Assembly (NCBI RefSeq): GCF_053078305.1
Contig: NZ_CP166879.1
Length of the DNA: 64,000 bases
Reading direction: 5' to 3' (one strand)
Part shown: one piece after another, positions 32,521 to 54,688 of the stretch
How positions within the stretch are numbered: the stretch's first letter is position 1
Layout of the letters: every line of letters begins with the position of its first letter
Translations under genes and position numbers: made by a program
The notes under the pieces: generated by a model
Told to the model about the DNA's origin: nothing
What the model saw: only the letters and a program-made list of their open reading frames with translations
Databases searched by the model: none

Positions 32521-32851
32521 AATCAAATAGCCTACGCAATGTAGGCTTAATGATTCGTCTGAGTTATATTACGGGGCGTTTTTTTAATGCCCCGCTTTAC
32601 ATATATTTGCATTAATAAAATAATTGTAATTATAAGGTTAAATATCGGTAATTTGTATTTAATAAATACGATCGATATTGTTACTTTATTCGCCTGGTGC
32701 TCCCTTTTAATTAACTGTTTTAGCGGAGGATGCGGAAAAAATTCAACTCATTTGTTAATTTTTAAAATTTATTTTTATTTGGATAATCAAATATTTACTC
32801 CGTATTTGCATAAAAACCATGCGAGTTACGGGCCTATAAGCCAGGCGAGAT

Positions 32852-32880
32852 ATGATCTATATCAATTTCTCATCTATAAT
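32852..32880 (+). promoter_or_regulatory. focA-pflB promoter: FNR site (aTGAT-ctat-ATCAA) with downstream TATAAT -10
   Basis: Near-consensus FNR dyad at 32852-32865 and TATAAT at 32875-32880 in the AT-rich focA upstream region. Confidence 0.6.
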
Positions 32881-32925
32881 GCTTTGTTAGTATCTCGTCG
32901 CCGACTTAATAAAGAGAGAGTTAGT

Positions 32926-33783
32926 GTGAAAGCTGACAACCCTTTTGATCTTTTACTTCCTGCTGCAATGGCCAAAGTGGCCGAAGAGGCGGGTGTCTAT
33001 AAAGCAACGAAACATCCGCTTAAGACTTTCTATCTGGCGATTACCGCCGGTGTTTTCATCTCAATCGCATTCGTCTTCTATATCACAGCAACCACTGGCA
33101 CAGGCACAATGCCCTTCGGCATGGCAAAACTGGTTGGCGGCATTTGCTTCTCTCTGGGGCTGATTCTTTGTGTTGTCTGCGGAGCCGATCTCTTTACTTC
33201 CACAGTGTTGATTGTTGTTGCTAAGGCGAGTGGGCGCATCACCTGGGGTCAGTTGGCTAAAAACTGGCTAAATGTCTATTTTGGCAACCTGGTCGGCGCA
33301 CTGCTGTTTGTACTTTTAATGTGGCTTTCCGGCGAGTATATGACCGCAAATGGTCAATGGGGACTAAACGTCCTACAAACCGCCGACCACAAAGTGCACC
33401 ATACTTTTATTGAGGCCGTCTGCCTTGGTATCCTGGCAAACCTGATGGTATGTCTGGCAGTATGGATGAGTTATTCTGGCCGCAGCCTGATGGACAAAGC
33501 GTTTATCATGGTGCTGCCGGTCGCGATGTTTGTTGCCAGCGGTTTTGAGCACAGTATCGCAAACATGTTTATGATCCCGATGGGTATTGTAATCCGCGAC
33601 TTCGCATCTCCGGAATTCTGGACCGCTGTCGGTTCTGCACCGGAAAATTTTTCTCACCTGACCGTGATGAACTTCATCACTGATAACCTGATTCCGGTTA
33701 CGATCGGTAATATTATCGGCGGTGGTTTGTTGGTTGGGTTGACATACTGGGTCATTTACCTGCGTGAAAACGATCACCATTAA
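32926..33783 (+). CDS. focA: Formate channel FocA (GTG start)
   Basis: 285 aa from V/MKADNPFDLLLPAAMAK, GTG at 32926 in frame; the 398-aa ORF-track version runs through the AT-rich promoter region. Confidence 0.9.
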   Translation: MKADNPFDLLLPAAMAKVAEEAGVYKATKHPLKTFYLAITAGVFISIAFVFYITATTGTGTMPFGMAKLVGGICFSLGLILCVVCGADLFTSTVLIVVAKASGRITWGQLAKNWLNVYFGNLVGALLFVLLMWLSGEYMTANGQWGLNVLQTADHKVHHTFIEAVCLGILANLMVCLAVWMSYSGRSLMDKAFIMVLPVAMFVASGFEHSIANMFMIPMGIVIRDFASPEFWTAVGSAPENFSHLTVMNFITDNLIPVTIGNIIGGGLLVGLTYWVIYLRENDHH

Positions 33784-33837: not shown

Positions 33838-36120
<2,283 letters not shown>

Positions 36121-36159
36121 TTAGATTTGACTGAAATCGTACAGTAAAAAGCGTACAAT

Positions 36160-36189
36160 AAAGGCTCCACGAAAGTGGGGCCTTTTTTA
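36160..36189 (+). terminator. pflB intrinsic terminator
   Basis: GGCTCCAC-gaaa-GTGGGGCC hairpin (GNRA loop) followed by TTTTTT. Confidence 0.65.
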
Positions 36190-36311
36190 GCACGAGAGCC
36201 TTTTTTGTCAGCTATCTATACTTTAAGGTGACTGCCAAAACAGACTCGACGTAGCCTTCGAGCTGCGCACCAACACGGCCTCAGATGGGCCACATCTGGA
36301 GAAACACCGCA

Positions 36312-37052
36312 ATGTCAGTTATTGGTCGCATTCACTCCTTTGAATCCTGTGGAACCGTAGACGGCCCAGGTATTCGCTTTATCACCTTTTTCCAGGGCTG
36401 CCTGATGCGCTGCCTGTATTGTCATAACCGCGACACCTGGGACACGCATGGCGGTAAAGAAGTTACCGTTGAAGATTTGATGAAGGAAGTGGTGACCTAT
36501 CGCCACTTTATGAACGCTTCCGGCGGCGGCGTTACCGCATCCGGCGGTGAAGCAATCCTGCAAGCTGAGTTTGTTCGTGACTGGTTCCGCGCCTGTAAAA
36601 AAGAAGGCATTCATACCTGTCTGGATACCAACGGTTTTGTTCGTCGTTACGATCCGGTGATTGATGAACTGCTGGAAGTAACCGACCTGGTAATGCTCGA
36701 TCTCAAACAGATGAACGACGAGATCCACCAAAATCTGGTTGGAGTTTCCAACCACCGCACGCTGGAGTTCGCTAAATATCTGGCGAACAAAAATGTGAAG
36801 GTGTGGATCCGCTACGTTGTTGTCCCAGGCTGGTCTGACGATGACGATTCAGCGCATCGCCTCGGTGAATTTACCCGTGATATGGGTAACGTTGAGAAAA
36901 TCGAACTTCTCCCCTACCACGAACTGGGCAAACACAAATGGGTGGCGATGGGTGAAGAATACAAACTCGATGGTGTTAAACCACCGAAGAAAGAAACTAT
37001 GGAACGCGTGAAAGGCATTCTTGAGCAGTACGGTCATAAGGTAATGTTCTAA
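36312..37052 (+). CDS. pflA: Pyruvate formate-lyase activating enzyme (radical SAM)
   Basis: 246 aa from [20 protein letters not shown]; radical-SAM CxxxCxxC motif (CLYCHNRD). Confidence 0.97.
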
Positions 37053-37057
37053 TTTCC

Positions 37058-37096
37058 CCGTAAAGCGGCAACTTTATTGAGTTGCCGCTTTTTTAT
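37058..37096 (+). terminator. pflA intrinsic terminator
   Basis: AAGCGGCAAC-tttattga-GTTGCCGCTT 10-bp stem followed by a T-run. Confidence 0.7.
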
Positions 37097-37261
37097 TCCG
37101 CGCTGCATAAATAATTCAGAGCTCTATTTCTCACGCCCTTACAGCACAGCTTCCAAATGTATTACCCAAACCGCCAGTATATGTCCTGCGGCTTGCGCGC
37201 ATTTCTCGATTATGTAAAAACGGGTCAGATCTGCCAGAGTCAGCATCACCGACCACAATAA

Positions 37262-38692
37262 TTATTTACTATTCGCTTTACGCGCCAGCAGCGGGAATAT
37301 CAGTCCTAATCCTACCAGCACAAACGGCGTTGCAACATTCAGCGCCAACTGGAAGGTCCACTCTGCAGTGAAGGCTTCCATTTTCGGGAAGATCCCCGTC
37401 AAACAGGCAAAGGCGGTAAAGGCAAAACACCAAATCCCGACGGTCATTGCCAGAGGCTTATTACGAATAAAGACATATTCTGGTTTATATTTCTGCGCCA
37501 GGCGAACGACTGCAATAAATGCAACAAATACCCATAAATAACGCAGCGGCATCACTACCGAGTTAAGATTCAACAGCCATTTATAGAGATTGTTCATATC
37601 ACCGATGCCGAGAGTCGGCAGCATAATCAGAATTGCCACCAGCACCAGGGTCAGAAAATAGCCATTAACGGGCGTACCAGAAGCGTTGGTACGACATAAA
37701 CTGGCTGGAATATATTTGCTGTCAGCATCACCTAATAGCACTTTAAGCGGGGCATCAATCGAGAATACCAGCGCAGCTACTTGTCCCAGGGTATTCGCAA
37801 TGGCGTAAATCACCATTAAAGTATTACCCATGTTGTAATACTCGCCCAGCTTCTGAAAAGCGTAATATTGACCGTTAGTCATTAAGTCATCCGGGATATT
37901 ACGCGAGTCAAACATCATCCCCATCGCCAGTGAGCCCAGAATGGCACAAACCGCAACCATCACCGCCAAGCATAGCATCCCTTTTGGAAATTCTTTTCCT
38001 GGGTTGCGCGTTTGATTAACGTAAGGAGAAATCTTCTCTGCTCCGCCAACCGCGAAAACCAGCATTGAAATAGTGGTAATGTAGGTAAAGTCGATATGAG
38101 GAATGAACGTTTCCCAGGTAATGTTTGTGGTCGCAATATGCACTTCAGTAATCGCAGGCGCGGTTACCGCCATCGCCACATACAGGAGCGACATAACAAA
38201 CATCGCAATCCCTGCCACAGAACCGACGATTTTCAGCGATTTCATACCGCGTGAAGCAACCCACATAAAGAAGATAAACAGCACCAGCGTTAACCCCTGT
38301 AACGCTACGACTGAATATTCTTTGATTAGCGAACCGTCGCCTTTCATCGCCCAACCGAGCGCAATCAGTATTGCCTGGGGTTTTTGTGCCAGATAGGGAA
38401 TATGCACCACCCAGTAGGTCCACGCGGCGAGGTAAGCCAGTCCGGGTCCCATCGTGTGTTTAATCCAAGTACTGACCCCGCCTTTCCCATCTTTGAAGGT
38501 CGAGCCTAACTGACCAACAATTAGCGCATAAGGTGTGAAATAGAGCGCAAAGATAAACACCCATGAAAAAACAACCACCAGCCCCTGGTTGGCATAGTTA
38601 TTAACAACGTTGCCAAAACCCCAGACAGTGATAAAAGACATCAGCGCAATGTTGTACCATCGCAGCTGTTTTTCCTGAACATTCCCAGCCAT
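37262..38692 (-). CDS. ycaM: APC-family amino acid transporter YcaM
   Basis: 476 aa from MAGNVQEKQLRWYNIAL; polytopic membrane protein; the ORF-track start is 64 codons longer. Confidence 0.85.
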   Translation of the reverse strand: MAGNVQEKQLRWYNIALMSFITVWGFGNVVNNYANQGLVVVFSWVFIFALYFTPYALIVGQLGSTFKDGKGGVSTWIKHTMGPGLAYLAAWTYWVVHIPYLAQKPQAILIALGWAMKGDGSLIKEYSVVALQGLTLVLFIFFMWVASRGMKSLKIVGSVAGIAMFVMSLLYVAMAVTAPAITEVHIATTNITWETFIPHIDFTYITTISMLVFAVGGAEKISPYVNQTRNPGKEFPKGMLCLAVMVAVCAILGSLAMGMMFDSRNIPDDLMTNGQYYAFQKLGEYYNMGNTLMVIYAIANTLGQVAALVFSIDAPLKVLLGDADSKYIPASLCRTNASGTPVNGYFLTLVLVAILIMLPTLGIGDMNNLYKWLLNLNSVVMPLRYLWVFVAFIAVVRLAQKYKPEYVFIRNKPLAMTVGIWCFAFTAFACLTGIFPKMEAFTAEWTFQLALNVATPFVLVGLGLIFPLLARKANSK

Positions 38693-38901
38693 AGACAAAT
38701 CCTTCGCCAAAATTAAAGGGGCATCTGTAAAACGAGGGATTATGCGCGGCAAATAAGAAGTGCGGAAATAGCGAAATGCAAAATTATAACCTGCTGCACA
38801 TTTTATTTTTAAACGAATAAAATTTGGAAAAAAGCAAGTCAGATAGAAGAAACAAAAAAGCAGAGTGTGAAACAGTAAGTTCACACTCTGCTTGAATTCA
38901 T

Positions 38902-40050
38902 TTACACGTGAGCAACGGGTTTCGGCGTATGACCGGCGTTGCGAAGCAGCATCAGCAAATAGATAAACGATACGCTGGCGATCATGATAAACAATAAATT
39001 ATCGGAGAAATTCTGCATTAGCATAGCGGTAAATGACGGGCCAAGCAGACTTCCCACGGTATAGCTCAACAGTAAGGCCTGGTTCATCGCCACCAGTTGA
39101 TGATGTTCAACTTTCTCGCAAGCCCAGGCCATCGCCACCGGATATAGCGTAAAGCCAGCGGCACCGAGGATGAATAACGCTGGGGCCATCGCCGCCTGGC
39201 TAAGCATCGCGATACTGCCGAGAATGACGACAAAGACCTGAACACGCAACACCAGCAGTCGACCAAACTTATCCGCCAGACGTCCAATCGGCCATTGTCC
39301 GAGGATACCCGCACTGACCAGTACCGCCATCCAGAAACCAATGCTGGCATTGCTCACCCCTTTGTGATTGAGGTACAACGGCATCAGGCCATATAGAGAT
39401 CCCAGAACGATTCCTGAGATAATGCAGCCATTCACGCCAAGCCGCGCCTGACGGAGTTTTAGCATTGACGTAATTGACGTCGAATCATGGTTTTCAGCCT
39501 GCTGATTCAGGACACGCGTAAACAACAGCGGTAAGATCCCTGCCAACGTCAAACCTGTAACCCACGGCAATACGCTCATCAGCTCGGTTGAGACTTTGCT
39601 GACCAGTAACTGGCCTAAAAACGTTCCCACGTAATAAACCATCATATACGCAGCAAGCAAACGCCCACGGTTACGTGACGTCCCACTGCACATCAGCGCG
39701 CTCTCAACGACTACCCAAATCATGGCACAGCCGACGCCCGCGACAAAACGCCACGCCAACCAGCTCCAGAAACCAATCATCAGGCCAAGGCCGGCACAGC
39801 CAGCGGCAAAAATGAAGGAGGCCAGATAATAGCTGCGGTTAAAGCCAATGCGTTTAATGACATACCCTGTCAGCAATGTACCGACAAGGTTGCCGGTAAA
39901 ATAGGATGAGCTGACAACGCCTACCTGCCATGTGGACATGTGTTCCTGGGCGAGCCAAAGCGGCACGAGTGTATTTAACACCGCGATCGCCAGAGTCAAC
40001 AAAAGCAGGCCAGACAGCAAAAGCATGACAGGCCGGGTATACGTGGACAT
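38902..40050 (-). CDS. ycaD: MFS transporter YcaD
   Basis: 382-aa ORF with 12 predicted transmembrane segments. Confidence 0.9.
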
Positions 40051-40364
40051 GAATTAAAACCGTGAGGAAGTTCAAATTTCATGCGCATCATGCCACCGCC
40101 AAAAACATTGTCAATGGGTGAAAATACGCGCATATCGCAGCGGCGGTATTATCGATTTATATTACTCATTCATAACGCTAATACTGAAGAGATGATTAAT
40201 CTCATCTGATTGTTTTTATTGATCTAACACAAATTTCATACGCTTCGTTCAGTCGAAAAATTTCATGGTCACAGCAAACTCATATTTCCCGTCTATGCTT
40301 TCAGAGCAATGCATCGCGTCTGACCGATTTCAGACGTACCACTGACTCTCGAAAGGAGAAGAGG

Positions 40365-40991
40365 ATGACCAAACCGTATGTTCGTCTTGATAAAAATGAT
40401 GCTGCCGTTTTGCTTGTTGATCACCAGGCTGGTTTACTTTCCCTTGTACGGGATATCGAACCCGATAAGTTTAAAAATAACGTGCTGGCGCTGGGTGACC
40501 TGGCTAAGTATTTCAACTTACCAACTATTCTTACCACCAGTTTTGAAACCGGTCCTAACGGCCCATTAGTTCCAGAACTGAAAGCACAATTCCCCGATGC
40601 ACCTTACATTGCTCGCCCGGGCAATATTAATGCCTGGGATAACGAAGATTTTGTAAAAGCAGTCAAAGCGACAGGTAAAAAACAGTTAATTATTGCCGGT
40701 GTGGTAACCGAAGTTTGCGTGGCATTCCCGGCGCTTTCAGCCATTGAAGAGGGGTTTGATGTGTTTGTCGTGACTGACGCATCAGGGACCTTTAATGAAA
40801 TTACCCGGCATTCGGCGTGGGATCGCATGTCGCAAGCTGGTGCGCAATTGATGACATGGTTCGGCGTGGCTTGCGAGCTACACCGTGACTGGCGTAATGA
40901 TATTGAAGGACTGGCGACGTTGTTCTCTAACCACATTCCTGATTATCGTAATTTGATGACCAGTTATGACACGTTAACGAAGCAGAAATAA
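40365..40991 (+). CDS. ycaC: Isochorismatase-family hydrolase YcaC
   Basis: 208-aa ORF MTKPYVRLDKNDAAVLLVDHQAGLL... Confidence 0.93.
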   Translation: MTKPYVRLDKNDAAVLLVDHQAGLLSLVRDIEPDKFKNNVLALGDLAKYFNLPTILTTSFETGPNGPLVPELKAQFPDAPYIARPGNINAWDNEDFVKAVKATGKKQLIIAGVVTEVCVAFPALSAIEEGFDVFVVTDASGTFNEITRHSAWDRMSQAGAQLMTWFGVACELHRDWRNDIEGLATLFSNHIPDYRNLMTSYDTLTKQK

Positions 40992-40995
40992 AAGA

Positions 40996-42519: not shown

Positions 42520-44964
42520 TTACACCTTTTCAACCTGAACAAGGTTTGTATGTGACGGATTCCCCTTAGCGAGAGGAGACGGACGTTGAGTGGTCAGTAC
42601 GTTAATACAACCACCCTTATCGACACGTTTTGCATCCGGGTCATACCAGGCACCTTCACCCAGTGCGACCACACCCGGCATCATTCGTGGCGTCACTTTC
42701 GCCTCAATATGAACCTCACCACGATCGTTAAAGATCCTGACTTTATCGCCGTTGTGGATACCGCGTTTTTGGGCATCAAGCGGGTTGATCCACATTTCCT
42801 GACGGCAAGCCGCTTTCAGCACATCAACGTTGCCGTAAGTTGAGTGAACGCGAGATTTATAGTGGAAACCCGTAAGCTGCAGCGGATACTGTTTGTTCAG
42901 CGGATCCTGATAACTTTCAAAGCCCGGCGTGTAGATCGGCAGTGGATCGATCACATCGCCTTCTGGCAATTCCCAGGTAGCGGCAATGTCAGCCAGCGCC
43001 TGCGAATAAATCTCAATTTTGCCCGATGGCGTAGTCAGTGGGTTTGCCTGCGGATCTTCACGGAAGGCTTTATAAGCAACGTGATGCCCTTGTGGGTCGC
43101 GCTTTTTAAAGATCCCCTGCTTGCGGAACTCTTCAAACGTTGGCAGTTCAGGAATCGCTTCCCGCGACTGGGCATACAGATGCCGCATCCACTCTTCCTG
43201 TGTACGACCTTCAGTAAACTGTTGCTCAACGCCAAGACGTTTTGCCAGTTCGCTGGTCATCTCATAGATGGTCTTACATTCAAAGCGCGGTTTAATCACC
43301 TGATCGTTGAAAATCACGTAAGACATATTCCCGCAGGATGCATCCAGCGCAAAGTCCATCTGTTCGGAAGCGGTGCAGTCAGGCAGCAGGATGTCAGCAT
43401 ATTTCGCCGATGAAGTCATGTGGCAGTCGATAACCACAATCAGCTCGCACTTCTTATCATCCTGGAGGATTTCATGGGTACGGTTGATTTCAGAATGCTG
43501 GTTAATCAGGCAGTTACCGGCATAGTTCCAGATCATTTTGATCGGCACATCCAGCTTATCTTTCCCGCGCACACCATCACGCAGCGCCGTCATTTCCGGG
43601 CCACGTTCAATGGCATCGGTCCACATAAACATCGAAATGCTGGTCTGGATCGGGTTTTCCAAGGTCGGCATACGGACAAACGGTAAGCTGTATGAACCTT
43701 CACGCGCGCCGCTGTTCCCTCCATTAATACCAACGTTACCGGTCAGAATCGCCAGCATCGAGATAGCGCGAGTCGCGATTTCGCCGTTGGCGTGGCGCTG
43801 CGGCCCCCATCCCTGGCTGATAAACGCCGGTTTGGTACTGCCGATTTCACGAGCCAGTTTGATGATTTTGTCTGCCGGAACACCGGTGATTTGCGAGGCC
43901 CATTCCGGTGTTTTAGCCACGCCATCTGGCCCTTCACCCAGAATATAAGCTTTATAGTGGCCATTTTTCGGCGCACTGGCTGGCAGGGTTTTCTCGTCAT
44001 AGCCAACGCAATATTTATCGAGGAATGCCTGATCCACCAGGTTTTCGGTGATCATGACATACGCCAGACCGTTAACCAGTGCGGCATCTGTTCCTGGACG
44101 AATAGGGATCCACTCATCTTCGCGCCCGGCACCGGTGTCGGTATAGCGCGGATCGATGATGATCATGCGGGCATTAGATTTCTGGCGTGCCTGTTCAAGA
44201 TAGTAAGTCACCCCACCGCCACTCATTCGCGTTTCGCCAGGGTTATTACCAAACAGCACTACCAGCTTACTGTTTTCGATATCCGACGGGCTGTTGCCAT
44301 CTGCCCAGCCGCCGTAGGTATAGTTCAGACCTTCCGCAATTTGCGCGGAAGAGTAGTCACCGTAATGGTTCAGATAACCGCCGCAGCAGTTCATCAGCCG
44401 CGCGACCAGGGTATTTCCCGGCGGCCAGGAGCGGGTCATGGTGCCACCCAGCGTACCGGTGCCATAGTTAAGATAGATGGATTCGTTGCCGTACTCTTTG
44501 ATCAGGCGCTGCATATTGGTCGCGATGATGTCGTAGGCTTCTTCCCAGCTAATGCGCTCGAATTTGCCTTCACCGCGCGCCCCGACTCGTTTCATCGGAT
44601 ATTTCAGGCGGTCCGGATTATAGACACGGCGACGCATGGAACGCCCACGCAAACAGGCGCGAACCTGGTGCAGGCCGTCGTAATTGTCATCGCCGGTATT
44701 GTCCGTTTCGACATATTTGATTTCACCGTCCACGACGTGCATACGTAGCGGGCAGCGACTACCACAGTTAACTGTACAGGCGCTCCAGATAACCTTTTCG
44801 TCTGATTTTGTTGGAATGGCGCTATCGACAGCGTGCGCAATCCGACTAAAAGGTAATGTTAATGCGCTGCTGGCCATTGCCAGGCCGCCGATCGCTGTCG
44901 TTTTTACCAAACCACGGCGACTCACCTCAGCAGCCAATACCGCATCAGGGATTTTCGTTTTCAT
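42520..44964 (-). CDS. dmsA: DMSO reductase catalytic subunit (molybdopterin, Tat-exported)
   Basis: 814-aa ORF; twin-arginine signal (EVSRRGLVKT); molybdopterin oxidoreductase family. Confidence 0.97.
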   Translation of the reverse strand: MKTKIPDAVLAAEVSRRGLVKTTAIGGLAMASSALTLPFSRIAHAVDSAIPTKSDEKVIWSACTVNCGSRCPLRMHVVDGEIKYVETDNTGDDNYDGLHQVRACLRGRSMRRRVYNPDRLKYPMKRVGARGEGKFERISWEEAYDIIATNMQRLIKEYGNESIYLNYGTGTLGGTMTRSWPPGNTLVARLMNCCGGYLNHYGDYSSAQIAEGLNYTYGGWADGNSPSDIENSKLVVLFGNNPGETRMSGGGVTYYLEQARQKSNARMIIIDPRYTDTGAGREDEWIPIRPGTDAALVNGLAYVMITENLVDQAFLDKYCVGYDEKTLPASAPKNGHYKAYILGEGPDGVAKTPEWASQITGVPADKIIKLAREIGSTKPAFISQGWGPQRHANGEIATRAISMLAILTGNVGINGGNSGAREGSYSLPFVRMPTLENPIQTSISMFMWTDAIERGPEMTALRDGVRGKDKLDVPIKMIWNYAGNCLINQHSEINRTHEILQDDKKCELIVVIDCHMTSSAKYADILLPDCTASEQMDFALDASCGNMSYVIFNDQVIKPRFECKTIYEMTSELAKRLGVEQQFTEGRTQEEWMRHLYAQSREAIPELPTFEEFRKQGIFKKRDPQGHHVAYKAFREDPQANPLTTPSGKIEIYSQALADIAATWELPEGDVIDPLPIYTPGFESYQDPLNKQYPLQLTGFHYKSRVHSTYGNVDVLKAACRQEMWINPLDAQKRGIHNGDKVRIFNDRGEVHIEAKVTPRMMPGVVALGEGAWYDPDAKRVDKGGCINVLTTQRPSPLAKGNPSHTNLVQVEKV

Positions 44965-45134
44965 AATGGCTCACTCAAGCTTGCTCACGATTGATTCCAG
45001 TAACAAACCGTATTGTGTAATTATTTCTATAGCAGATCGCTATATAGGCTTGTATACATCGAATAATTTGAAAATCAAAGAGATAGGTAGATTTTCACTC
45101 GAAAGTAGTATTACGTGTAAGTGAGGAGTAATTA

Positions 45135-45148
45135 TTGTTCGGTATCAA
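45135..45148 (-). promoter_or_regulatory. FNR binding site of the dmsA promoter (TTGAT-accg-AACAA on the dmsA strand)
   Basis: Consensus FNR dyad ~175 bp upstream of the dmsA start codon; dmsABC is a classic FNR-activated operon. Confidence 0.7.
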
Positions 45149-45191
45149 AGGGAGACAAAAAAAGCGCCCGCAGGAGGTTTAACGCTACTTA

Positions 45192-45253
45192 CTCCCCTTG
45201 ATGATTTGCTTATTTTTCAATGAGTAAATCAAAACAAGGGGAGCAAATAAGCA
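45192..45253. repeat. Interleaved inverted repeats immediately 3' of int: candidate prophage attL core / Int binding region
   Basis: CTCCCCTTG (45192-45200) and TGCTTATTT (45207-45215) are each repeated in inverted form as CAAGGGGAG (45235-45243) and AAATAAGCA (45245-45253). Confidence 0.4.
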
Positions 45254-45263
45254 CAAGTTACAA

Positions 45264-46256
45264 CTAATCGATGGACAGTTTATGGACACTTTCAGCCAGC
45301 GGATTAAAGCTGATTGCATCCTGTAAAAAGTCCGGCGAAAAATGCGCATACGTCATCGTTTGTTGAATCGTGGCATGGCCCAGGATTCGTTGTAGCGTAA
45401 CGATATTTCCGCCATTCATCATGAAATGTGTAGCGAATGTATGACGCATGACATGGGTGGCCTGCCCTTTCGGTAAGTCCGGCTTCACCTCCTGAAGGAT
45501 CTCCCGAAATCTGAGGTAATCAGCCTGGTACAACAATCCGGTTCTGCGGGTTTTAATTAACGCAAGTACCGCATCAGAAACGGGAACGGCGCGAGATTTT
45601 CCGTTCTTGGTGTTAAAGAACATCACGCGGTTACCTACAATATGTTCCCCACGTAAACCAGCTGCTTCACCCCACCTTGCCCCCGTGGAAAGACACAGAA
45701 TGGCAACACGCCGCGCATCTCCATCGAGTCGTTCAAGCAGTCGTTCAATCTCCTCATCTGAAAGAAAGGCCATCTCTGTGTTCCTGACTTTCAGCTTACG
45801 TATTCCCCGAACCGGGTTTTCGTTATGGAACACCTCACCCTCAATCAGCGAGCTGAACATTGCAGACAAGGCACACAAATCGCGGTTAATGCTGGAAGGC
45901 ATTAACCCGGCCTGTAATTTGTCGGACCGGTACCCGAGCATAAATTTTCGCGTCATCTGACTGGCACGAGGATCACCCATCTCACGGTTTATCTTTTCCA
46001 GTCTGACCCTGTAGGTATCCCCGTAATCCTGGTTACGACCATCAAGCAACCACCAGGCCTCTATCAGTTCGGATAACCGACGCTGATCTGCTGGCTTAGC
46101 CTGCCATGGCTTATCATGAAAATTCTGCAAAACATACCTTTCAAACTCCTGCGCCTTTGACTTCAGGGTAAAAATCTTACGAATCCGCTTTCCTTCCGTC
46201 CCTTGTGGCCTTACATCAACCTTATAACGTCCGTCTTTGAGTTGCTTAATCGACAT
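45264..46256 (-). CDS. int: P2-type tyrosine integrase
   Basis: 330 aa from MSIKQLKDGRYKVDVRP; strong similarity to remembered P2 Int (LSTGARWGEAA, HxxRHTFATHF, ILGHATIQQTMTYAHF); ATG with GGAGGGG Shine-Dalgarno. Confidence 0.9.
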   Translation of the reverse strand: MSIKQLKDGRYKVDVRPQGTEGKRIRKIFTLKSKAQEFERYVLQNFHDKPWQAKPADQRRLSELIEAWWLLDGRNQDYGDTYRVRLEKINREMGDPRASQMTRKFMLGYRSDKLQAGLMPSSINRDLCALSAMFSSLIEGEVFHNENPVRGIRKLKVRNTEMAFLSDEEIERLLERLDGDARRVAILCLSTGARWGEAAGLRGEHIVGNRVMFFNTKNGKSRAVPVSDAVLALIKTRRTGLLYQADYLRFREILQEVKPDLPKGQATHVMRHTFATHFMMNGGNIVTLQRILGHATIQQTMTYAHFSPDFLQDAISFNPLAESVHKLSID

Positions 46257-46325
46257 GATTAGCCCCTCCAACGGATAAATTAACCAAACACTCCCTGCGG
46301 GATGAAACCCGCTCGATGTGTAACG

Positions 46326-46673
46326 TCAGCCAGCATTGCGGCCTGATCGGGATGATTTTTGGGTAACGTCGATTGAAGCCAGATCGCCCTCCGACTGAGA
46401 AGATCCATCAAGAGAGAGAGCCGGGGCAATTTGACCCCCAGCTTCAAACGTTTCATCAGTTGTTAACCAAAGTGCATATTTTTTAAAACGTAAATTTTTT
46501 GTGATCTTTAATAAGATCTCACTTCCGATTCCATCTTGCCTTCCCGTTTCGTAATACCTCTGCGTATTAACAGGAATCCCTGTAAGCTCAAAGAATTGCT
46601 TCCTTGTAAGCCTCTCACTTTTCCGGATCATCAAGATTTTTTCACCGATACTTATTGACAGTGTCGAATTCAT
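46326..46673 (-). CDS. P2 C-type immunity repressor (HTH)
   Basis: 115 aa from MNSTLSISIGEKILMIRKSERLTRKQ; resembles remembered P2 C (EKIVLMRKSEYLSRQQLADLTG, GQIAPAL); upstream of int on the same strand. Confidence 0.8.
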   Translation of the reverse strand: MNSTLSISIGEKILMIRKSERLTRKQFFELTGIPVNTQRYYETGRQDGIGSEILLKITKNLRFKKYALWLTTDETFEAGGQIAPALSLDGSSQSEGDLASIDVTQKSSRSGRNAG

Positions 46674-46774
46674 ACCACTAAAATCCTCGCAAAAGTGTCG
46701 TAATTTCGACATTAAACAAACCAAAACAAACCTTCATAAGGTGCAATAGGCGCACCTGTGCGAGAGGATAACAA

Positions 46775-47299
46775 ATGCGGGACTTCATTGCCGATAAAGA
46801 GTTATCTGACACCGATCACACAACTGGAGCGGCGTACATCAACGCCGATACCAGTCAACAAGAAGCAACAGATAACAACGACGAACAAAAGCCACAGCGC
46901 ACATATAAAAAAGGGGCAACCCTGCGGCTGGATGGCCCAATAGCCGGGCTTTGCTCACTTGAAAAAGGGGCCGCCTACATCGGATTAACAAAAACAGCAT
47001 TACGCGCAGCTCTCCAGCGTAACCAGATGCCAGGGCATAAAACCCGCTCAAACCCTGAAGATGAGAATTCGGATGGTGTTTGGTGGTTTAACGTCAGAGA
47101 GTGGGACAAGCTGGCCGACGAACTCCCGGAATGTGAGCCACCAGAATGGCACAACTGGAAAAGCTACTGGACATACGACCGCCAGAAAAGAAAGTTTACC
47201 CCGGCTGATAAGGAAGATTGCCAGACCGTCAATGGAAAACGGGTTTACAAAGGCAGAAAGTCAAAGCTGGAACAGAGCCAGGATGTAAACGAACGGTGA
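46775..47299 (+). CDS. Cox-like excisionase/early regulator with N- and C-terminal extensions; start uncertain
   Basis: The central segment ATLRLDGPI...AAYIGLTKTALRAAL...DGVWWFNVREWD aligns by eye with P2 Cox; first gene of the rightward early operon, divergent from C. Confidence 0.55.
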   Translation: MRDFIADKELSDTDHTTGAAYINADTSQQEATDNNDEQKPQRTYKKGATLRLDGPIAGLCSLEKGAAYIGLTKTALRAALQRNQMPGHKTRSNPEDENSDGVWWFNVREWDKLADELPECEPPEWHNWKSYWTYDRQKRKFTPADKEDCQTVNGKRVYKGRKSKLEQSQDVNER

Positions 47300-47305
47300 T
47301 GAACG

Positions 47306-47701
47306 ATGAGCGGCAAAAATAAGTCAGAAAAAAACACAACCGTCCTTAAGCAGTTAAGCCTCCTGAAAGAGGAACACAAGGACGCCACGATACTGATGCA
47401 TCTGGAAGGCTCACCGAAAATAACAATCACAACAACCTATAGCGAGTTACACAAAGAGCTTGAAGGATTAATTAACTTTTGTTCAAAGCTAAAAGCGAAT
47501 GAAAACATTGATGACCTGATACTTAAACCAGAAGCAGAGTTCGGGCACTTTTGCGAAAGTAGAGAAAATGGATGCATCGGAATAATGCTATACGCAACCC
47601 GCGGAATAATGATTAATCTGCCCGTTGAGCAGGCTGTGGATATATTCGGAGAAATGGCACTTAATAAAACCACTATTTACAAAAGAAAAATGCCGGAGTA
47701 A
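47306..47701 (+). CDS. Hypothetical phage early protein (lower-GC moron candidate)
   Basis: 131-aa ORF starting 7 nt after the cox-like stop; GC ~40% by hand count against ~55-60% in the rest of the prophage. Confidence 0.5.
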   Translation: MSGKNKSEKNTTVLKQLSLLKEEHKDATILMHLEGSPKITITTTYSELHKELEGLINFCSKLKANENIDDLILKPEAEFGHFCESRENGCIGIMLYATRGIMINLPVEQAVDIFGEMALNKTTIYKRKMPE

Positions 47702-47714
47702 CCCGGCATGGTTA

Positions 47715-47909
47715 TTAGTATGTTGGTCCCTTAGAAAAGTTCCAGGAACTCTTGCGAGGGTATTTATGAAGTACTTTTTCGCGGACATCGTTAGCCAGAT
47801 CTCTGATTTGATCGTGCTTATCATCAGAAGACGGAGGAACTTCGGGGATTTTATCCACGATTTCAATTACTGATTTAAGCATTTTTATTAATTCATCGTC
47901 GTAAGACAT
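47715..47909 (-). CDS. Hypothetical small protein, reverse-oriented inside the early operon
   Basis: 64 aa from MSYDDELIKMLKS with a perfect AGGAG Shine-Dalgarno 6 nt upstream; convergent with the 47306 gene; lower GC. Confidence 0.5.
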   Translation of the reverse strand: MSYDDELIKMLKSVIEIVDKIPEVPPSSDDKHDQIRDLANDVREKVLHKYPRKSSWNFSKGPTY

Positions 47910-48016
47910 TGTTATCTCCTTTTTCTGGTTGTGTGGAAACACCAGAATACCACGCGCCGGGCGTGGTTAAACATCCCGGCACTGATTTTCATTTAACTTA
48001 AACGGGGTTTTCCGAT

Positions 48017-48355
48017 ATGACACAGCGACGCAGCTTCCGCACTGGCGCAGAACGCCACGCAGCCCGTTTCTCAACCAGCGCATCACGCAGCAACTCGCAC
48101 TACAGCCTGCAGGAAACGCACGCCACACCTGACGGGCATCCGGTTAAACAAACCGGTAAACACACCTGGCTGATTAATGATGCCGGAATTGTCATTCACC
48201 GGGGCGCACGCAACCCGATTACCGGAAATACCTGTTACTCCCTGACTCGCGGAGATGAGCAGTTCGGGCAGGATTTCACCCTGCACGAAGCATTAAGAAC
48301 GGCAGACCGGTTAATCAGCGGTCGCAGTTTTCAGCACCCGGAACATCGCCGCTGA
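48017..48355 (+). CDS. Hypothetical phage early protein
   Basis: 112-aa ORF in the early operon; no recognisable motif. Confidence 0.45.
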   Translation: MTQRRSFRTGAERHAARFSTSASRSNSHYSLQETHATPDGHPVKQTGKHTWLINDAGIVIHRGARNPITGNTCYSLTRGDEQFGQDFTLHEALRTADRLISGRSFQHPEHRR

Positions 48356-48374
48356 TAAATAAAAGGATTCAGCC

Positions 48375-48617
48375 ATGATCGAAGCCTACAAAATACTTAT
48401 TAATAATGCGTTGCAGCGTTATCACTTCGAACTCGCAAACCGGGGGGTAACCCGGGACGAAGGACTTCGTAACTCACTGCGGGGCGCAATTATGGGACTG
48501 TATAACTGCGCACTGGGCAGCGATGACCGCGAAGCACTGGAAGAATTAAAAGTTATTGTGGCCGAACTGTTTGAAGGTGAAATCGTTGAGCCTTATTTCA
48601 CAGAGGTGGCAGCATGA
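48375..48617 (+). CDS. Hypothetical phage early protein
   Basis: 80-aa ORF with AAGGAT Shine-Dalgarno; stop overlaps the next start (ATGA). Confidence 0.5.
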   Translation: MIEAYKILINNALQRYHFELANRGVTRDEGLRNSLRGAIMGLYNCALGSDDREALEELKVIVAELFEGEIVEPYFTEVAA

Positions 48618-48739
48618 GCGTATTTCTTTCATGGGTGATTCTGATTATTTCCGTGCTTATGGCGATTGGCATTATGCGAATTATCGAAGCGCTGAAAAAT
48701 ATCGAATCTTTATTTACTGGCGAAGAACGCCGTAAATAA
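48614..48739 (+). CDS. Small hydrophobic (single-TM) peptide, translationally coupled
   Basis: 41 codons MSVFLSWVILIISVLMAIGIMRIIEALKNIESLFTGEERRK; absent from the ORF track (<60 aa); ATGA overlap with the upstream gene. Confidence 0.4.
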   Translation: MSVFLSWVILIISVLMAIGIMRIIEALKNIESLFTGEERRK

Positions 48740-48818
48740 ATAACCAACCGGACAGAAAACATTAAAACCATCCGCATCTGCGGAGGGCTTCACTCAATCC
48801 AGAAACGGAGAAACAGCT

Positions 48819-49097
48819 ATGAGCACCAATACACCTACAGAAATAAACAAACTATTTACCGACCCGGCGCATATTGAATTGACGCAAAAAACGCTGACTG
48901 AAATAACCAATGTACTGGATGAAAGAATATCAGAAATAGATAAAGACAAGCATTTTGCTACTTACATGGCCCTGCAAATGCAAAGCATGGCAATGGTGAC
49001 AGCAAAACAGACCATCAGTGAACTCTATATGAAAAACCTGCGCCTTGAGCACGAACTGGCAGAACTCCGGGCACAGTCCGGCCAGTTTTCAGCGTGA
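48819..49097 (+). CDS. Hypothetical phage early protein
   Basis: 92-aa ORF with ACGGAG Shine-Dalgarno; helical C-terminus. Confidence 0.5.
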   Translation: MSTNTPTEINKLFTDPAHIELTQKTLTEITNVLDERISEIDKDKHFATYMALQMQSMAMVTAKQTISELYMKNLRLEHELAELRAQSGQFSA

Positions 49098-49108
49098 GGG
49101 GCAGGACG

Positions 49109-49360
49109 ATGAACAGCATATTTACCGCCACAAGACGAACCCTGCTGACGCATTTCACCGATGCCGCGGGCCGCGAATTCATGGTGGAAAGTTATTTAAT
49201 CACAACGACCACGCCGTGCCCGTCAGACGCTGATTATCTCTACATCCATCTGGCTGACGGAACACAAATCACCGCGATTGCCAGTACCGTTCGCGAAGTA
49301 ATGACCATCAGAGGGGCATGGAAATCAGAAACACAAGCCCACGGAGAGCTGCGGCCATGA
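49109..49360 (+). CDS. Hypothetical phage early protein
   Basis: 83 aa from MNSIFTATRR with GAGGGG Shine-Dalgarno; stop overlaps the next start. Confidence 0.5.
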   Translation: MNSIFTATRRTLLTHFTDAAGREFMVESYLITTTTPCPSDADYLYIHLADGTQITAIASTVREVMTIRGAWKSETQAHGELRP

Positions 49361-49569
49361 TCAGCAAGTACACCACCAACGCACGTAAACCCGGTAAAGA
49401 CGCACGCCACCACATCGCCGTACTCCGCAATCTGTTACTGGAGGAAATCGACGACTTCACGGCGACGCTGAGCGGTCCGGGCGCACCAGTAACACCAGGT
49501 GAGATCCACCGGGACCTTAAACGCCGTATTGAAAACGCCATTGATTACACCCTGAACCCGACCGAATAA
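49357..49569 (+). CDS. Hypothetical phage early protein
   Basis: 70 aa from MISKYTTNARKPGK; ATGA coupling to the upstream gene. Confidence 0.45.
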   Translation: MISKYTTNARKPGKDARHHIAVLRNLLLEEIDDFTATLSGPGAPVTPGEIHRDLKRRIENAIDYTLNPTE

Positions 49570-49595
49570 CCGGAACAGTAACGGAGGTTATCGCG

Positions 49596-50150
49596 ATGAG
49601 ACTTACACCAATGGGAATACCGGGCAAAGCCCCGGCACATGTGAAGGCGTGGACACAGCAGGAAGATCGGTTACTCATCTCGCTTTATCAGGAACACAAC
49701 ACACATCAGATGGCTGAACGAATTCAGCGAACCCGTAAAGCAGTTATGCACCGGATTCGTTTTTTACGTAATCGTGGGCTGATTGGCCGCAAGAGAAAAG
49801 CACCACTGAGTACAGAAGCCATAGCCTTTCTTATTAAAAACCGTCATGTAAAAACCGCACAGGAAATGGCTCTGGAAGTGGGATGTAGTGAGTGCACAGT
49901 GAGGTACACACTGCGTAAACGGGGTTACAACCTGAAAAAATGCGGTGAGAACCACCATTGCGCCAGATACAGCGATCATCTGGTTGAGCTGGTCACGGAG
50001 CTACGCGACATACACAACATGACGTTCTGCATGATCGCTGAACACATCAACAGCACGATACAGATGCACATTAACGACGATGCGGCGTTTCATCTCTACC
50101 ACCGCCGCACAGCGGCTGACGCCGCGCTCTGTGAACTGTTACCGGGCTGA
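49596..50150 (+). CDS. Putative DNA-binding early protein with two HTH-like segments
   Basis: 184-aa ORF with GGAGG Shine-Dalgarno; two helix-turn-helix-like stretches judged by eye; no family assigned. Confidence 0.5.
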   Translation: MRLTPMGIPGKAPAHVKAWTQQEDRLLISLYQEHNTHQMAERIQRTRKAVMHRIRFLRNRGLIGRKRKAPLSTEAIAFLIKNRHVKTAQEMALEVGCSECTVRYTLRKRGYNLKKCGENHHCARYSDHLVELVTELRDIHNMTFCMIAEHINSTIQMHINDDAAFHLYHRRTAADAALCELLPG

Positions 50151-50269
50151 GTGATCATCATGCACACACAAAAAAACCGCTTGCCATGCCGCAATCAGTC
50201 AGGTTACATTCCCACTGCACCTCATAAAACGGGTGCCGGGATTACCACCCCGCCGACTACACAAGCGCA

Positions 50270-50291
50270 CAACCGCGCCAGCGGTTTTTTT
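50270..50291 (+). terminator. Intrinsic terminator inside the prophage early region
   Basis: AACCGC-gcca-GCGGTT hairpin followed by TTTTTTT. Confidence 0.5.
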
Positions 50292-50470
50292 GTGCGTACT
50301 GTATCGCCACGTCTTTTTCGCGTCAGAATTATGGCGGGGCGTACGGGGCCGACTTCGGTCGGGCCGGGGTCTTGTGTAGCCGGTTGTGGTAACCCTGTAC
50401 GTCTCGCCACCCTGAGATTACCGCCTCGGGTTGGTGAGTTTTCACAACTTACTACACAAGGGGCCACACC

Positions 50471-50698
50471 ATGGCAAACCGCAAACAACAGCGCGTCCGC
50501 GCTGAGCGTCTTCACATCCGCACCGAAATCAACCGCAGACTCTGGCGCGCATCACGCGTCGCGCAAATCATGTACATCAACATGCTGCATGAACACGCAC
50601 ACGCGCTGTCAGACCGTTACTGTGCCGCCGTCTTCAGCTACCTGGCGGATGACCTGGCAGAGCTGCAGGACCTTATCAACCAGCAACACCACCACTAA
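50471..50698 (+). CDS. Hypothetical phage protein
   Basis: 75-aa ORF with AAGGGG Shine-Dalgarno; basic N-terminus, His-rich C-terminus. Confidence 0.45.
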   Translation: MANRKQQRVRAERLHIRTEINRRLWRASRVAQIMYINMLHEHAHALSDRYCAAVFSYLADDLAELQDLINQQHHH

Positions 50699-50766
50699 AC
50701 AACATCCTGAAGCCATCCCGCACCCGTGCGCGGGAGGCTTCCGCACGTCTGTTACCGGAGGTTCTC

Positions 50767-51189
50767 ATGAAGAACGTTAAGGGACTTTCAGATATTCAGG
50801 ATTTTTTTAACTGGATGTGGGCAGTGGATCCCCGGCTGGCTTCCCGCCTGAACGACTGGCACGACTATTACCGCCGCGCCTGTAAACAGGCCGCCAGACG
50901 CGTCACCACATACGGGGATTTCTCCTTCACCGTTGACGGCAGTTACCGCGTGGACGTGAAAGGCGATGGTGATGGTTTTGGTTTTGGTTTATTTCACATC
51001 AACGGAACCGACAGCACCGCCATCAGCTGGTCGTCGTCAGAGATGACGCTTGTTCTGGAAATGACAAACCACAGCGTGGCCGTGAAAGGTATATACACCG
51101 CAGAAGACTTTATCGGTGAATACCAGCGCCTTCTCGTGCTGTACCGGGCAGCGTTTCAGGCGGCAACTGCCGGGGAGTGCGACGCATGA
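50767..51189 (+). CDS. Hypothetical phage protein
   Basis: 140-aa ORF with GGAGG Shine-Dalgarno; stop overlaps the gpA start (ATGA). Confidence 0.5.
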   Translation: MKNVKGLSDIQDFFNWMWAVDPRLASRLNDWHDYYRRACKQAARRVTTYGDFSFTVDGSYRVDVKGDGDGFGFGLFHINGTDSTAISWSSSEMTLVLEMTNHSVAVKGIYTAEDFIGEYQRLLVLYRAAFQAATAGECDA

Positions 51190-53705
51190 GCGACCATAAC
51201 GCACAACTGGCGTACCCGTGGAACGCCCCGCTGCCGGTTATCGATCCTGAAACGTTCGGCAGAGCGCAACCAACCGCATTACGCCAGGCCATTCAGAGCT
51301 ACATCAACGAAGACATTCGCACTGACGCCAGACTGGATGAAGAAACCGTCGCCTTCCTGACAACCACAGACGAAGGGAAGCGAATTAATTCGCATCTTCA
51401 CCACGACGAAGAGCGTCGGATCAGACTGGAAAAACTGACGCGACACAAACGCGAAAATCCACCCACGCTGGTATCTGAAGCCATGGCAGAGCTGCGCGCC
51501 CTGCCGCCGTTTCTTGCCGGTCCGCTCATCCGTGACCTGGCCCGCCTGAGCCGCAAACAGGAGAGCGCACGCCGGGAAGGGCTTAAGAATAACAGCGCAT
51601 ATGCGGCGGATAACTTCGTTCGTCACGGCCTGCGTGCCCGCCTGAAACGTATCGCCCGTGTGAATGAACGCTTTGCCACCCCGGCCTTTAAGGCCACCGC
51701 CGCCCGCGAACGGCTGGATGAACTGCTTATGCTGCCGCAGCTGAGCCGTGACGAAATCCAGCGCCTTGCCACCCTGACCGCCACCGCGTTTTCCGCCGCA
51801 CTGGAGCGCGCATGTGATGAGGTCATCGAAAAGACCGGCAGGGGTGACGATGACCTGTTCACCTGGTTACTGACCTACCAGCCACTGGCACGCATGGCGT
51901 TAAAACTGGGTATCACACCACCCTGCTGGCCGTCGCTGGAAATCAGACCCGACCGCCGCACCGCCCCCGACCCGGAACAGGTGCCGGGTGCGGTCATGCG
52001 CCTTTCCTGTGCGACATGGTGGAACAGTCAGTTAAGACACCTCCGGGACATCTGGCGTGAAGAGCTGTTACGCGCCGCAGGTCTGGTGTCACGTAAGACA
52101 TCGGTATATATCAGCCATGAAGCGTTACTGGACTGGCGCGAAAAACGCCAGCGCACCCGCGATTTTCTGAAGGCCTGGGACATCGAGAACGAAGAGGGAG
52201 AACGGTTCAGCCTTGAGGATATCTACTGGGCAGGTCTCTCTAATCCGCGTAACCGCCGTAACGAGATGATGGCCTGCGTCCGGGGAATGGAGCAGGTCGC
52301 CGAAGCACGCGGCGACCTGGCGTTTTTCGTCACCGTCACAGCCCCTTCCCGTTTTCACAGCGTGAACGATGACGGCAGCCTGAACCCGAAATACTGCGGA
52401 GCAACGGTACGTGATGCCAGTGATTATCTGGTTTACCGCTTTTTCGCCGCCGTCCGCAGGGCCATCAACAAGGCCGGGCTGGGCTGGTACGGCGTGCGCA
52501 CAGTGGAGCCCCACCACGACGGTACACCGCACTGGCACATGCTGGTATTCACCAGCCCGGAAAACGAAGCCCGTATCACTGAAATCATGCGCAACGCCGC
52601 CATCAGGGAGGACCGCGCAGAGCTGGGTGATGATATCTCCCCGCGTTTTAAATGCGAAAAAATCGACCCGGCAAAAGGCACACCGGCGAGCTATATCGCG
52701 ACCTATATCGGTAAGAACCTGGACGCCAGCGCCTTCATGGGGAATGACCCGAAAACCGGCAAACCTTACGTCGATAAGGAATCAGGCAAAACCATGGCCG
52801 AAACCGTGGAGAACGCCATCGGCTGGGCGGCCCTTCACCGCATCCGCCAGTTCCAGTTCTTCGGTATCCCTCCCCGCCAGGTATGGCGCGAACTCCGCCG
52901 CCTTGCCGGGCAGATGGCCCGTAACCCGGCTGCCCCGCAGCGTCTGGACCATGACGACATTGACGCCATACTGGCCGCCGCCGACGTGGGATGTTTTGCC
53001 ACCTATATCACCCGCCAGGGTGGTGTGCTCATTCCCCGCAACACGTACCTGGTCCGCACCGCATACGAAACTGCCGAAGAGGCCAACGACTACGGCGAAT
53101 TCCCGCAACGCATTTACGGCGTCCGCGCCCCGTCACTCGGGGAGCGCTACACCATATGCACCCACCCGGACACCTGGAAACTGGTCAGACGTAAGCCGGA
53201 AAACGAAGACCGCACGGACGAGGGTTTTGACGTTGAGTGCGGCTTTGCCGCACCTTGGACTCGTGGCAATAACTGTCCCCCTGACCAGAATCTGACCATA
53301 AACGACCCGCCAGAAAGGCAGCCGGACGGACGCAGGGAGCAGCGACTTACCCTGCCGGAAGGTGATTTGGGTGAATGGTTAAGGTCACTGACCCCCACAG
53401 AGCGAAAACAACTCACCAGGCAGCTGAAAAACCCGCCACCTGACACGGAAACCGTGAAAAACGGCGGCATCAGTGCGCCCGCTGGCGGCGTTCGCGTGAG
53501 TGTCGCACTGACCGCTGAGCCACACATCACCGCACAAATCACCCGTGAGCTTGATGCGCTGGGCGTGCAGCTGCATGAAAGCGCCGTCGTTTCCGTCCGG
53601 CACGGTGCCCGCGTGCGCCTGGCTGACGGGCGCACCGCGTACTGGAATGACAGCACCCGCCGCATTGATATCACCCCCGCACCGAATACGGAGGCGCCAC
53701 AATGA
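51186..53705 (+). CDS. Rolling-circle replication initiator endonuclease (P2 gpA-like)
   Basis: 839 aa from MSDHNAQLAYPW (ATG with GGGGAG Shine-Dalgarno; the ORF track uses a GTG 9 nt upstream); HUH motif GTPHWHMLVF; size and position as in P2/186. Confidence 0.85.
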   Translation: MSDHNAQLAYPWNAPLPVIDPETFGRAQPTALRQAIQSYINEDIRTDARLDEETVAFLTTTDEGKRINSHLHHDEERRIRLEKLTRHKRENPPTLVSEAMAELRALPPFLAGPLIRDLARLSRKQESARREGLKNNSAYAADNFVRHGLRARLKRIARVNERFATPAFKATAARERLDELLMLPQLSRDEIQRLATLTATAFSAALERACDEVIEKTGRGDDDLFTWLLTYQPLARMALKLGITPPCWPSLEIRPDRRTAPDPEQVPGAVMRLSCATWWNSQLRHLRDIWREELLRAAGLVSRKTSVYISHEALLDWREKRQRTRDFLKAWDIENEEGERFSLEDIYWAGLSNPRNRRNEMMACVRGMEQVAEARGDLAFFVTVTAPSRFHSVNDDGSLNPKYCGATVRDASDYLVYRFFAAVRRAINKAGLGWYGVRTVEPHHDGTPHWHMLVFTSPENEARITEIMRNAAIREDRAELGDDISPRFKCEKIDPAKGTPASYIATYIGKNLDASAFMGNDPKTGKPYVDKESGKTMAETVENAIGWAALHRIRQFQFFGIPPRQVWRELRRLAGQMARNPAAPQRLDHDDIDAILAAADVGCFATYITRQGGVLIPRNTYLVRTAYETAEEANDYGEFPQRIYGVRAPSLGERYTICTHPDTWKLVRRKPENEDRTDEGFDVECGFAAPWTRGNNCPPDQNLTINDPPERQPDGRREQRLTLPEGDLGEWLRSLTPTERKQLTRQLKNPPPDTETVKNGGISAPAGGVRVSVALTAEPHITAQITRELDALGVQLHESAVVSVRHGARVRLADGRTAYWNDSTRRIDITPAPNTEAPQ

Positions 53706-54106: not shown

Positions 54107-54154
54107 ACAAAGACCATGAACATAACCAGAAACAGCCAACTAAAGGAGCGCACC

Positions 54155-54325
54155 ATGAACAGCACCAGGAGGATCAGCGACAGAGAGCTTACGAAAATGA
54201 TTGAGTCGGCACAGCAGCTGCTTTCACGACAAAACCCGGTCGTGGAAGAAACATGGTGGGAGAATTTACTGGCAGCACTGACCGAACTCCGGGAACGCCG
54301 GAACAACGAAGGAGCCGCCAAATGA
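54155..54325 (+). CDS. Hypothetical small helical protein
   Basis: 56 aa from MNSTRRISDRELTKM with AAGGAG Shine-Dalgarno; the ORF-track start at 54116 lacks one. Confidence 0.45.
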   Translation: MNSTRRISDRELTKMIESAQQLLSRQNPVVEETWWENLLAALTELRERRNNEGAAK

Positions 54326-54648: not shown

Positions 54649-54661
54649 AGGAGCTGGTGAG

Positions 54662-54688
54662 TCGGGGCAAAAATTCTTTTTGCCCCGG
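54662..54688. terminator. Bidirectional terminator between the accessory cassette and the ogr-like gene
   Basis: Perfect palindrome CGGGGCAAAAA-ttc-TTTTTGCCCCG. Confidence 0.7.

Follow-up and report, generated by a model that had tools for sequence, protein, structure and literature searches.

The 209-bp spacer between pflA and ycaM in the stretch of DNA analysed here, whose host is E. coli, is most likely (with a probability of roughly 0.85) the scar of one old deletion of the genes ycaK and ycaN. The stretch as a whole, 64,000 nucleotides long, is called the window. Its spacer runs from 37053 to 37261, the pflA stop ending at 37052 and the ycaM stop codon (TTA on the plus strand) lying at 37262-37264, and the order around the site is pflB, pflA, spacer, ycaM, ycaD, ycaC (plus strand) and dmsCBA (minus strand). 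Strain ET350 matches the window with 100% identity from pflA to ycaM, and its RefSeq annotation has the same genes and, at the equivalent of 37151-37261, a pseudogene. An earlier note on this DNA had described the pflA terminator as being followed by about 165 bp and then by the ycaM stop, and these coordinates are correct. The locus contains the following features:

33838-36120, plus strand: pflB (from the list of open reading frames)
36312-37052, plus strand: pflA, pyruvate formate-lyase activating enzyme, intact (open reading frame; the coordinates map onto the ET350 RefSeq annotation)
37053-37108: left part of the spacer, 56 bp, colinear with K-12 (BLAST and sequence print-outs)
37062-37097, plus strand: intrinsic terminator of pflA, a 13-pair hairpin at 37062-37091 and then a T-run (terminator scan)
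37109-37148: 40-bp 'filler' at the deletion junction, without counterpart in the 1,511 bp that K-12 has here
37149-37261, plus strand: 3' remnant of ycaN, 113 bp, a pseudogene of a LysR-type regulator (identity to K-12 and PGAP annotation)
37212-37254, minus strand: putative intrinsic terminator of ycaM inside the ycaN remnant, a hairpin at 37254-37223 and then CGTTTTTAC (inferred from RNA folding)
37262-38692, minus strand: ycaM, permease of the APC family, intact (open reading frame and annotation)
38902-40050, minus strand: ycaD, MFS transporter, a flanking core gene (open reading frame and annotation)

A search for open reading frames in the spacer (37053-37261) gave neither a YcaK-related frame nor an intact YcaN. 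For two of the neighbouring genes the mechanically determined frames are longer than the RefSeq proteins, namely for ycaM (540 aa from a GTG, 37262-38884, against 476 aa) and for focA (398 aa, 32587-33783, against 285 aa), and the 398-aa form of focA is also called by one gene caller in a public assembly. These longer frames are probably upstream in-frame extensions only.

In K-12, the two genes are found at exactly this place. The earlier note had placed ycaN and ycaK between ycaM and pflA on the K-12 map, and it would have been refuted if pflA directly adjoined ycaM in K-12 as well. The placement was right: in the K-12 derivative ER1821R, ycaK (591 bp, minus strand) and ycaN (909 bp, plus strand) lie between pflA and ycaM, and the locus of MG1655 matches in the same way. 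The gap between pflA and ycaM measures 1,680 bp in K-12 versus 209 bp in the window. BLAST gives two colinear blocks, one in which the window up to 37108 corresponds to the ER1821R locus (L002) up to 2324, and one in which the window from 37149 onwards corresponds to that locus from 3836 onwards, so that the window has 40 bp in place of 1,511 bp and is shorter by 1,471 bp. The K-12 DNA that is missing from the window consists of 25 bp downstream of ycaK, all of ycaK, the 99-bp intergenic region with the divergent promoters, and the first 796 of the 909 bp of ycaN, and 40 unrelated bp are found instead. The position, the flanking genes, the terminators and the last 113 bp of ycaN are the same as at the K-12 ycaK (b0901)-ycaN (b0900) locus. 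The window thus has what is expected of a deletion allele, namely flanks that are colinear with K-12 around the ycaK-ycaN gap and a residual fragment of a deleted gene. The last 14 colinear bp on the left side of the spacer (ATTCCGCGCTGCAT) lie beyond the pflA terminator, are common to K-12, and are missing from the LF82-type allele that is described below.

The residual fragment is the 3' end of ycaN, and it is just such a short remnant of ycaK or ycaN that the earlier note had proposed to look for in the spacer. With 96.5% DNA identity to K-12 ycaN, it encodes YcaN residues 267-302 and the stop codon, and 34 of the 36 amino acids are identical. It abuts the ycaM stop codon as does the 3' end of ycaN in K-12, where the stop codons of the two genes adjoin each other (ER1821R). 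It lacks the N-terminal HTH and the greater part of the substrate-binding domain, an in-frame stop is found upstream at 37112-37114, and the in-frame translation upstream of the remnant (FRALFLTPLQHS) has no resemblance to YcaN. There is no single intact open reading frame with HTH_1 and a complete LysR_substrate domain, as a functional LysR regulator would have it, and PGAP labels the remnant in ET350 as a 'LysR family transcriptional regulator' that is incomplete, 'missing N-terminus', and a pseudogene. As ycaK is gone and ycaN is truncated, the strain can make neither the YcaN regulator nor the YcaK NAD(P)H oxidoreductase.

The presence of the ycaN remnant means that the window is a deletion scar that descends from a ycaN-bearing arrangement, and not a site that was never occupied. 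The opposite has to be considered, i.e. that the lineage never had ycaK and ycaN and that K-12 gained both by insertion, as there are several observations that agree with it. Salmonella has ycaD, ycaM (473 aa), an unrelated 290-bp spacer, and pflA, then sopD2, and C. rodentium has ycaD and ycaM, then PTS and transketolase genes, in both cases without ycaK and ycaN; relatives of ycaK-ycaN outside E. coli are only distant, and E. fergusonii has the short form. However, had the genes been inserted into an empty site, the 'empty' allele could not contain the last 36 codons of ycaN together with their stop, and the eleven closest homologues align to YcaN up to residues 287-300, which marks the C-terminal region as genuine LysR sequence and not as recruited spacer. 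A primary absence is thus very improbable. The outgroups are informative in another respect: as Salmonella and C. rodentium have ycaM without ycaK and ycaN, the order before the acquisition of the two genes was probably pflA-ycaM, and ycaM is ancestral at the locus. A 'different ancestral arrangement', which the earlier note had offered as a second explanation, therefore applies only at this deeper level, whereas the window itself has the scar and not the primitive state. The neighbourhood of pflA and ycaM is a recurrent site of accessory DNA. In C. rodentium (L098 7778-11146), genes of a PTS EIIA, a transketolase and an EIIC follow directly after ycaM, and in Salmonella (L091 9452-10411) a gene of the SopD family is found between pflA and pflB.

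Deletion of ycaK and most of ycaN did not simply remove a part of the present K-12 sequence in one step, as the filler at 37109-37148 has no match in K-12. The 40 bp are conserved in all examined E. coli with the window-type allele and in E. fergusonii, and no source was found for them in the deleted segment of K-12, elsewhere in the window, or elsewhere in K-12-type genomes, where only the flanks matched (two matches per genome). The longest exact match of the filler is a 10-mer, and the same length is reached by 172 of 2,000 shuffles (8.6%). Also a 7-bp homology extension (AGCACAG) with a 10-bp gap at the junction is indistinguishable from chance, and an IS sequence, an inverted repeat and a target duplication are all absent from the spacer. 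As there is no IS, inverted repeat or convincing microhomology at the junction, illegitimate recombination is the most economical mechanism. A deletion that was made by an adjacent insertion element, with later loss of the element and the 40 bp as its debris, is a weaker alternative. Rearrangements by IS1 have indeed occurred at the locus in the strains CUPS04 and EC96, but the spacer has none of the traces of an element named above, the filler is without a further match in the window and without any in the K-12 segment, and the clean loss of an IS is rare, which renders this route improbable.

The scar is widespread in E. coli. Among 5,426 complete genomes, the K-12 type with ycaK-ycaN is found in 3,341 (about 61%), the window type with the 209-bp spacer in 1,023 (about 19%; counted when the spacer was matched over at least 80%), the LF82 type, in which pflA and ycaD are separated by 96 bp, in 1,047 (about 19%), and other rearrangements in about 15. 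About 38% of the complete E. coli genomes are thus without YcaN and YcaK, being of the window type or the LF82 type. Strains of O157:H7 and O145 are among the window-type genomes, which come from diverse hosts, serotypes and sequence backgrounds. Six sampled genomes of this type have the same 209-bp spacer, with scattered substitutions only and no indels, and their ycaM differs from that of the window at up to 52 of 1,431 positions. Judged from these sequences, the window-type junction goes back to one event and has been inherited or spread since then. The 'strain-specific deletion' of the earlier note was thus half right: the 113-bp remnant testifies to the deletion, but the allele is not specific to the strain, as it is found in 1,023 of the 5,426 E. 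coli genomes and in E. fergusonii. A recent deletion that is private to the strain or its clone is suggested by nothing beyond a comparison with K-12 alone, and with the junction being present in that many diverse complete genomes, and in E. fergusonii at 7-9% divergence, its probability is next to nil.

The LF82-type allele is likewise common at the same site and likewise has an intact pflA terminator, but its deletion is larger and includes ycaM. About 3.2 kb with ycaK, ycaN and ycaM are removed, which brings the terminators of pflA and ycaD together; in LF82 (L003 6769-6864), which belongs to phylogroup B2, and in the other genomes of this type, the two terminators are 4 bp apart. As ycaM is present in the outgroups, the LF82 form is derived and does not represent an empty site; it is a secondary deletion with an independent junction. 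A scenario with ycaM as a recent import and the LF82 junction, with its two adjoining terminators, as the empty site was rejected, as ycaM adjoins ycaD in E. fergusonii, Salmonella and C. rodentium. The best full-length named matches listed in the YcaM protein search are from Paenibacillus and Clostridium (65-70%), in a search whose 90% clustering and limit of 8,000 candidates hid nearer orthologues. An exact look-up of the PflA protein gave E. coli-type contexts only, nine of the K-12 type and one of the LF82 type. Two YcaM variants (P0005 and P0006, 90-92% identical) were considered as genes of a sister species and discarded, as both are shortened versions of ycaM (429 and 436 aa) that were called in K-12-type contigs; the truncations are probably assembly errors. 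In CUPS04 (L005 4026-5418), a ycaK stub lies on one side of an IS1 and a truncated ycaM on the other, and EC96 (H71) has two IS1 copies inside ycaK-ycaN. These are rare independent IS1 events at the same locus.

The same scar is present in E. fergusonii. Four genomes of this species have the order ycaD, ycaM, 209-bp spacer, pflA, and their spacer aligns base for base with that of the window, filler and remnant included, at 91-93% identity. The remnant is decayed further in E. fergusonii, with many private changes and an internal premature stop. That the scar is shared at this identity means that the allele is old; its minimum age is given by the 7-9% by which the E. coli and E. fergusonii spacers differ. 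The identity between the two species is 94% for pflA, 85% for ycaM, and 77% for ycaD. When it is followed along the locus, values of 91-98% in pflA and the spacer give way to about 89-93% at ycaM's 3' end and then to 73-77% in most of ycaD. Due to this fall the locus must have a recombinant history, and a strictly vertical descent of the spacer is unproven. It could thus be that a single deletion was shared with E. fergusonii by interspecies recombination of a tract that comprised pflA, the spacer and the 3' part of ycaM, and in this case the deletion could postdate the species split. The drop of identity from pflA and the spacer to ycaD does indicate recombination breakpoints, and E. coli recombines often. 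However, the divergence of 6-9% in pflA and the spacer is close to what the genomes of E. coli and E. fergusonii usually show, and any transfer must therefore be ancient; moreover, the anomalous divergence is on the ycaD side and not on the pflA side, and the E. fergusonii remnant has its own private changes and premature stop. Such a transfer is a serious alternative to descent from before the split, albeit an unlikely one.

On the ycaD side, the E. fergusonii gene is as distant from that of E. coli as is the Salmonella gene, and in E. fergusonii CP040805.1 (L090 1-11149, compared with 33901-40993 of the window) there is no dmsABC between serS and ycaC. The identity decreases gradually within ycaM, and this suggests that the ycaM-ycaD-ycaC side was replaced long ago in one of the two species.

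Traces of the history of the two alleles are found directly at the breakpoints. Four SNPs are diagnostic for the alleles, one no more than 3 bp from the left breakpoint and three no more than 17 bp from the right one. Intact-type E. coli have T at the left site and G, C, T at the right sites (13 of 13 loci), deleted-type E. coli have G at the left and A, G, C at the right (6 of 6 loci), and E. fergusonii has G at the left and G, C, C at the right (4 of 4 loci), which means that it shares two sites with each allele. Over the rest of the remnant, approximately 95 bp, the two E. coli alleles do not differ, except for one base that is private to the window. This pattern is suggestive of an old indel, the linkage of which has been erased by recombination except at the breakpoints, but it is not a proof. 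It is conceivable, if rather doubtful, that the polymorphism of intact and deleted alleles predates the split of E. coli and E. fergusonii and that each allele is favoured in some niches, for example through the control by YcaN of ycaC, ycaD and focA and of formate handling, beside the pfl operon. With no intact ycaN in other Escherichia representatives, simple parsimony would favour the deleted form as the ancestral state of E. coli, and the intact form of K-12-like strains would have persisted as a polymorphism or would have been re-imported.

As to the origin of ycaK-ycaN, no intact YcaN orthologue was found in other Escherichia, Salmonella and Citrobacter representatives (one genome per GTDB species). 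The best relatives of YcaN among the GTDB species representatives are 59-74% identical. One is from a Caballeronia, and the others are from Enterobacterales, namely Limnobaculum, Rahnella, Cedecea, Serratia and Symbiopectobacterium together with two Enterobacter isolates. Each of the eleven closest relatives (L006-L016) has a divergent neighbouring YcaK homologue with 50-57% identity, and none of them is near pflA or ycaM. The pairs of Limnobaculum, Rahnella, Cedecea, Serratia, Symbiopectobacterium and others consist of a LysR regulator and a Flavodoxin_2-type reductase that are divergently encoded about 100 bp apart, as are ycaN and ycaK, but they are found in contexts unrelated to that of E. 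coli, and the window keeps no more of such a pair than the last 36 codons of the regulator. YcaK is 98-99% identical within E. coli and 67% identical in its next named relative, and the ycaK-ycaN-ycaM stretch has a GC content of 42-49%, versus 50-55% in the flanks. Of the characteristics of a genomic island, neither an integrase gene nor a tRNA is seen: the annotation of K-12 has no genes besides ycaK and ycaN in the gap from pflA to ycaM, and no tRNA is found anywhere in the window. From these comparisons, ycaK-ycaN looks like an imported module of a LysR regulator and its target, a part of which was later deleted.

Both genes that converge on the spacer may have kept their transcription termination. 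In the K-12, LF82 and E. fergusonii forms alike, the pflA terminator is conserved, with its hairpin and T-run immediately behind the stop codon. On the minus strand, folding of the spacer gives the hairpin 37254-37223, which is followed by CGUUUUUAC (z = -3.6); a simple terminator scan did not report it. The ycaM terminator inside the ycaN remnant is thus a putative one, but if it is real, it would explain why the allele is tolerated and why the tail of ycaN has been retained. An Rfam search of the spacer had no hit at gathering score, the only match being that of the pflA hairpin to STnc250 with 17.7 bits (gathering score 42; E = 0.61). A sigma-70-like match (CTGGCA-17-CATAAT, 9 of 12 positions) is found at 37209-37237 on the minus strand, inside the remnant and facing pflA. 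With one site found and 0.4 expected, it is probably noise.

To the right of dmsA (42520-44964), the window continues with a P2-family prophage (45000-64000) instead of the genes serS, rarA and lolA that are found there in E. fergusonii. K-12 likewise has serS, rarA and lolA at this place. The prophage encodes an integrase-like frame (45264-46271, minus strand), a replication protein (51177-53705, plus strand), portal and terminase (55015-57890, minus strand), and scaffold and capsid (57844-60125, plus strand), and of its 19 kb only 17% are covered, at 82% identity, by the best phage matches (P88-like, vB_EcoM-569R5).

The history of the locus can be tentatively drawn as follows. The ycaK-ycaN pair may have entered the gap between pflA and ycaM by horizontal transfer in the Escherichia lineage, and an ancestor of the window had the order pflA-ycaK-ycaN-ycaM that is kept in K-12. 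Illegitimate recombination with filler DNA would then have caused the deletion, before or around the split of E. coli and E. fergusonii. Intact and deleted alleles would have coexisted in E. coli since that time, and recombination would have homogenised all but the bases beside the breakpoints. As the deletion appears to have spared both convergent terminators, that of pflA and the putative one of ycaM, the flanking genes would stay correctly expressed.

A literature search gave no paper that explicitly describes a ycaK-ycaN deletion. Perna et al. reportedly described K-12-specific segments ('K-islands') in 2001 when K-12 was compared with O157:H7. The locus described here likewise has about 1.5 kb of K-12 DNA that O157:H7 lacks, and O157:H7 and O145 have exactly the junction of the window; in addition to such a presence or absence, the polarity of the deletion, as evident from the remnant, and its frequency in the population have been worked out here. 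That ycaK and ycaN are absent from O157:H7-type genomes is already visible in the RefSeq annotation, and nothing suggests a new kind of element or mechanism. What is mildly novel is only how old the polymorphism seems to be and that E. fergusonii shares it.

In K-12, a deletion of ycaN changed the expression of ycaC, ycaD and focA, and the ycaN-ycaK-ycaM cluster was seen by the authors of that study only in E. coli K-12 and Shigella boydii (PMC9068703). The genes ycaM and ycaN have also been listed as a convergent 'excludon' pair with overlapping transcripts (PMC12288877). As YcaN is absent, neither the K-12 links to ycaC, ycaD and focA (PMC9068703) nor the ycaM-ycaN pair (PMC12288877) can apply in O157:H7-like or LF82-like strains. 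K-12 is not the reference state for the pflA-ycaM locus. The junction and the four flanking SNPs make a clean three-state typing marker, and the scar that is shared with E. fergusonii is a small and defined case for the persistence of an indel polymorphism in a recombining species.
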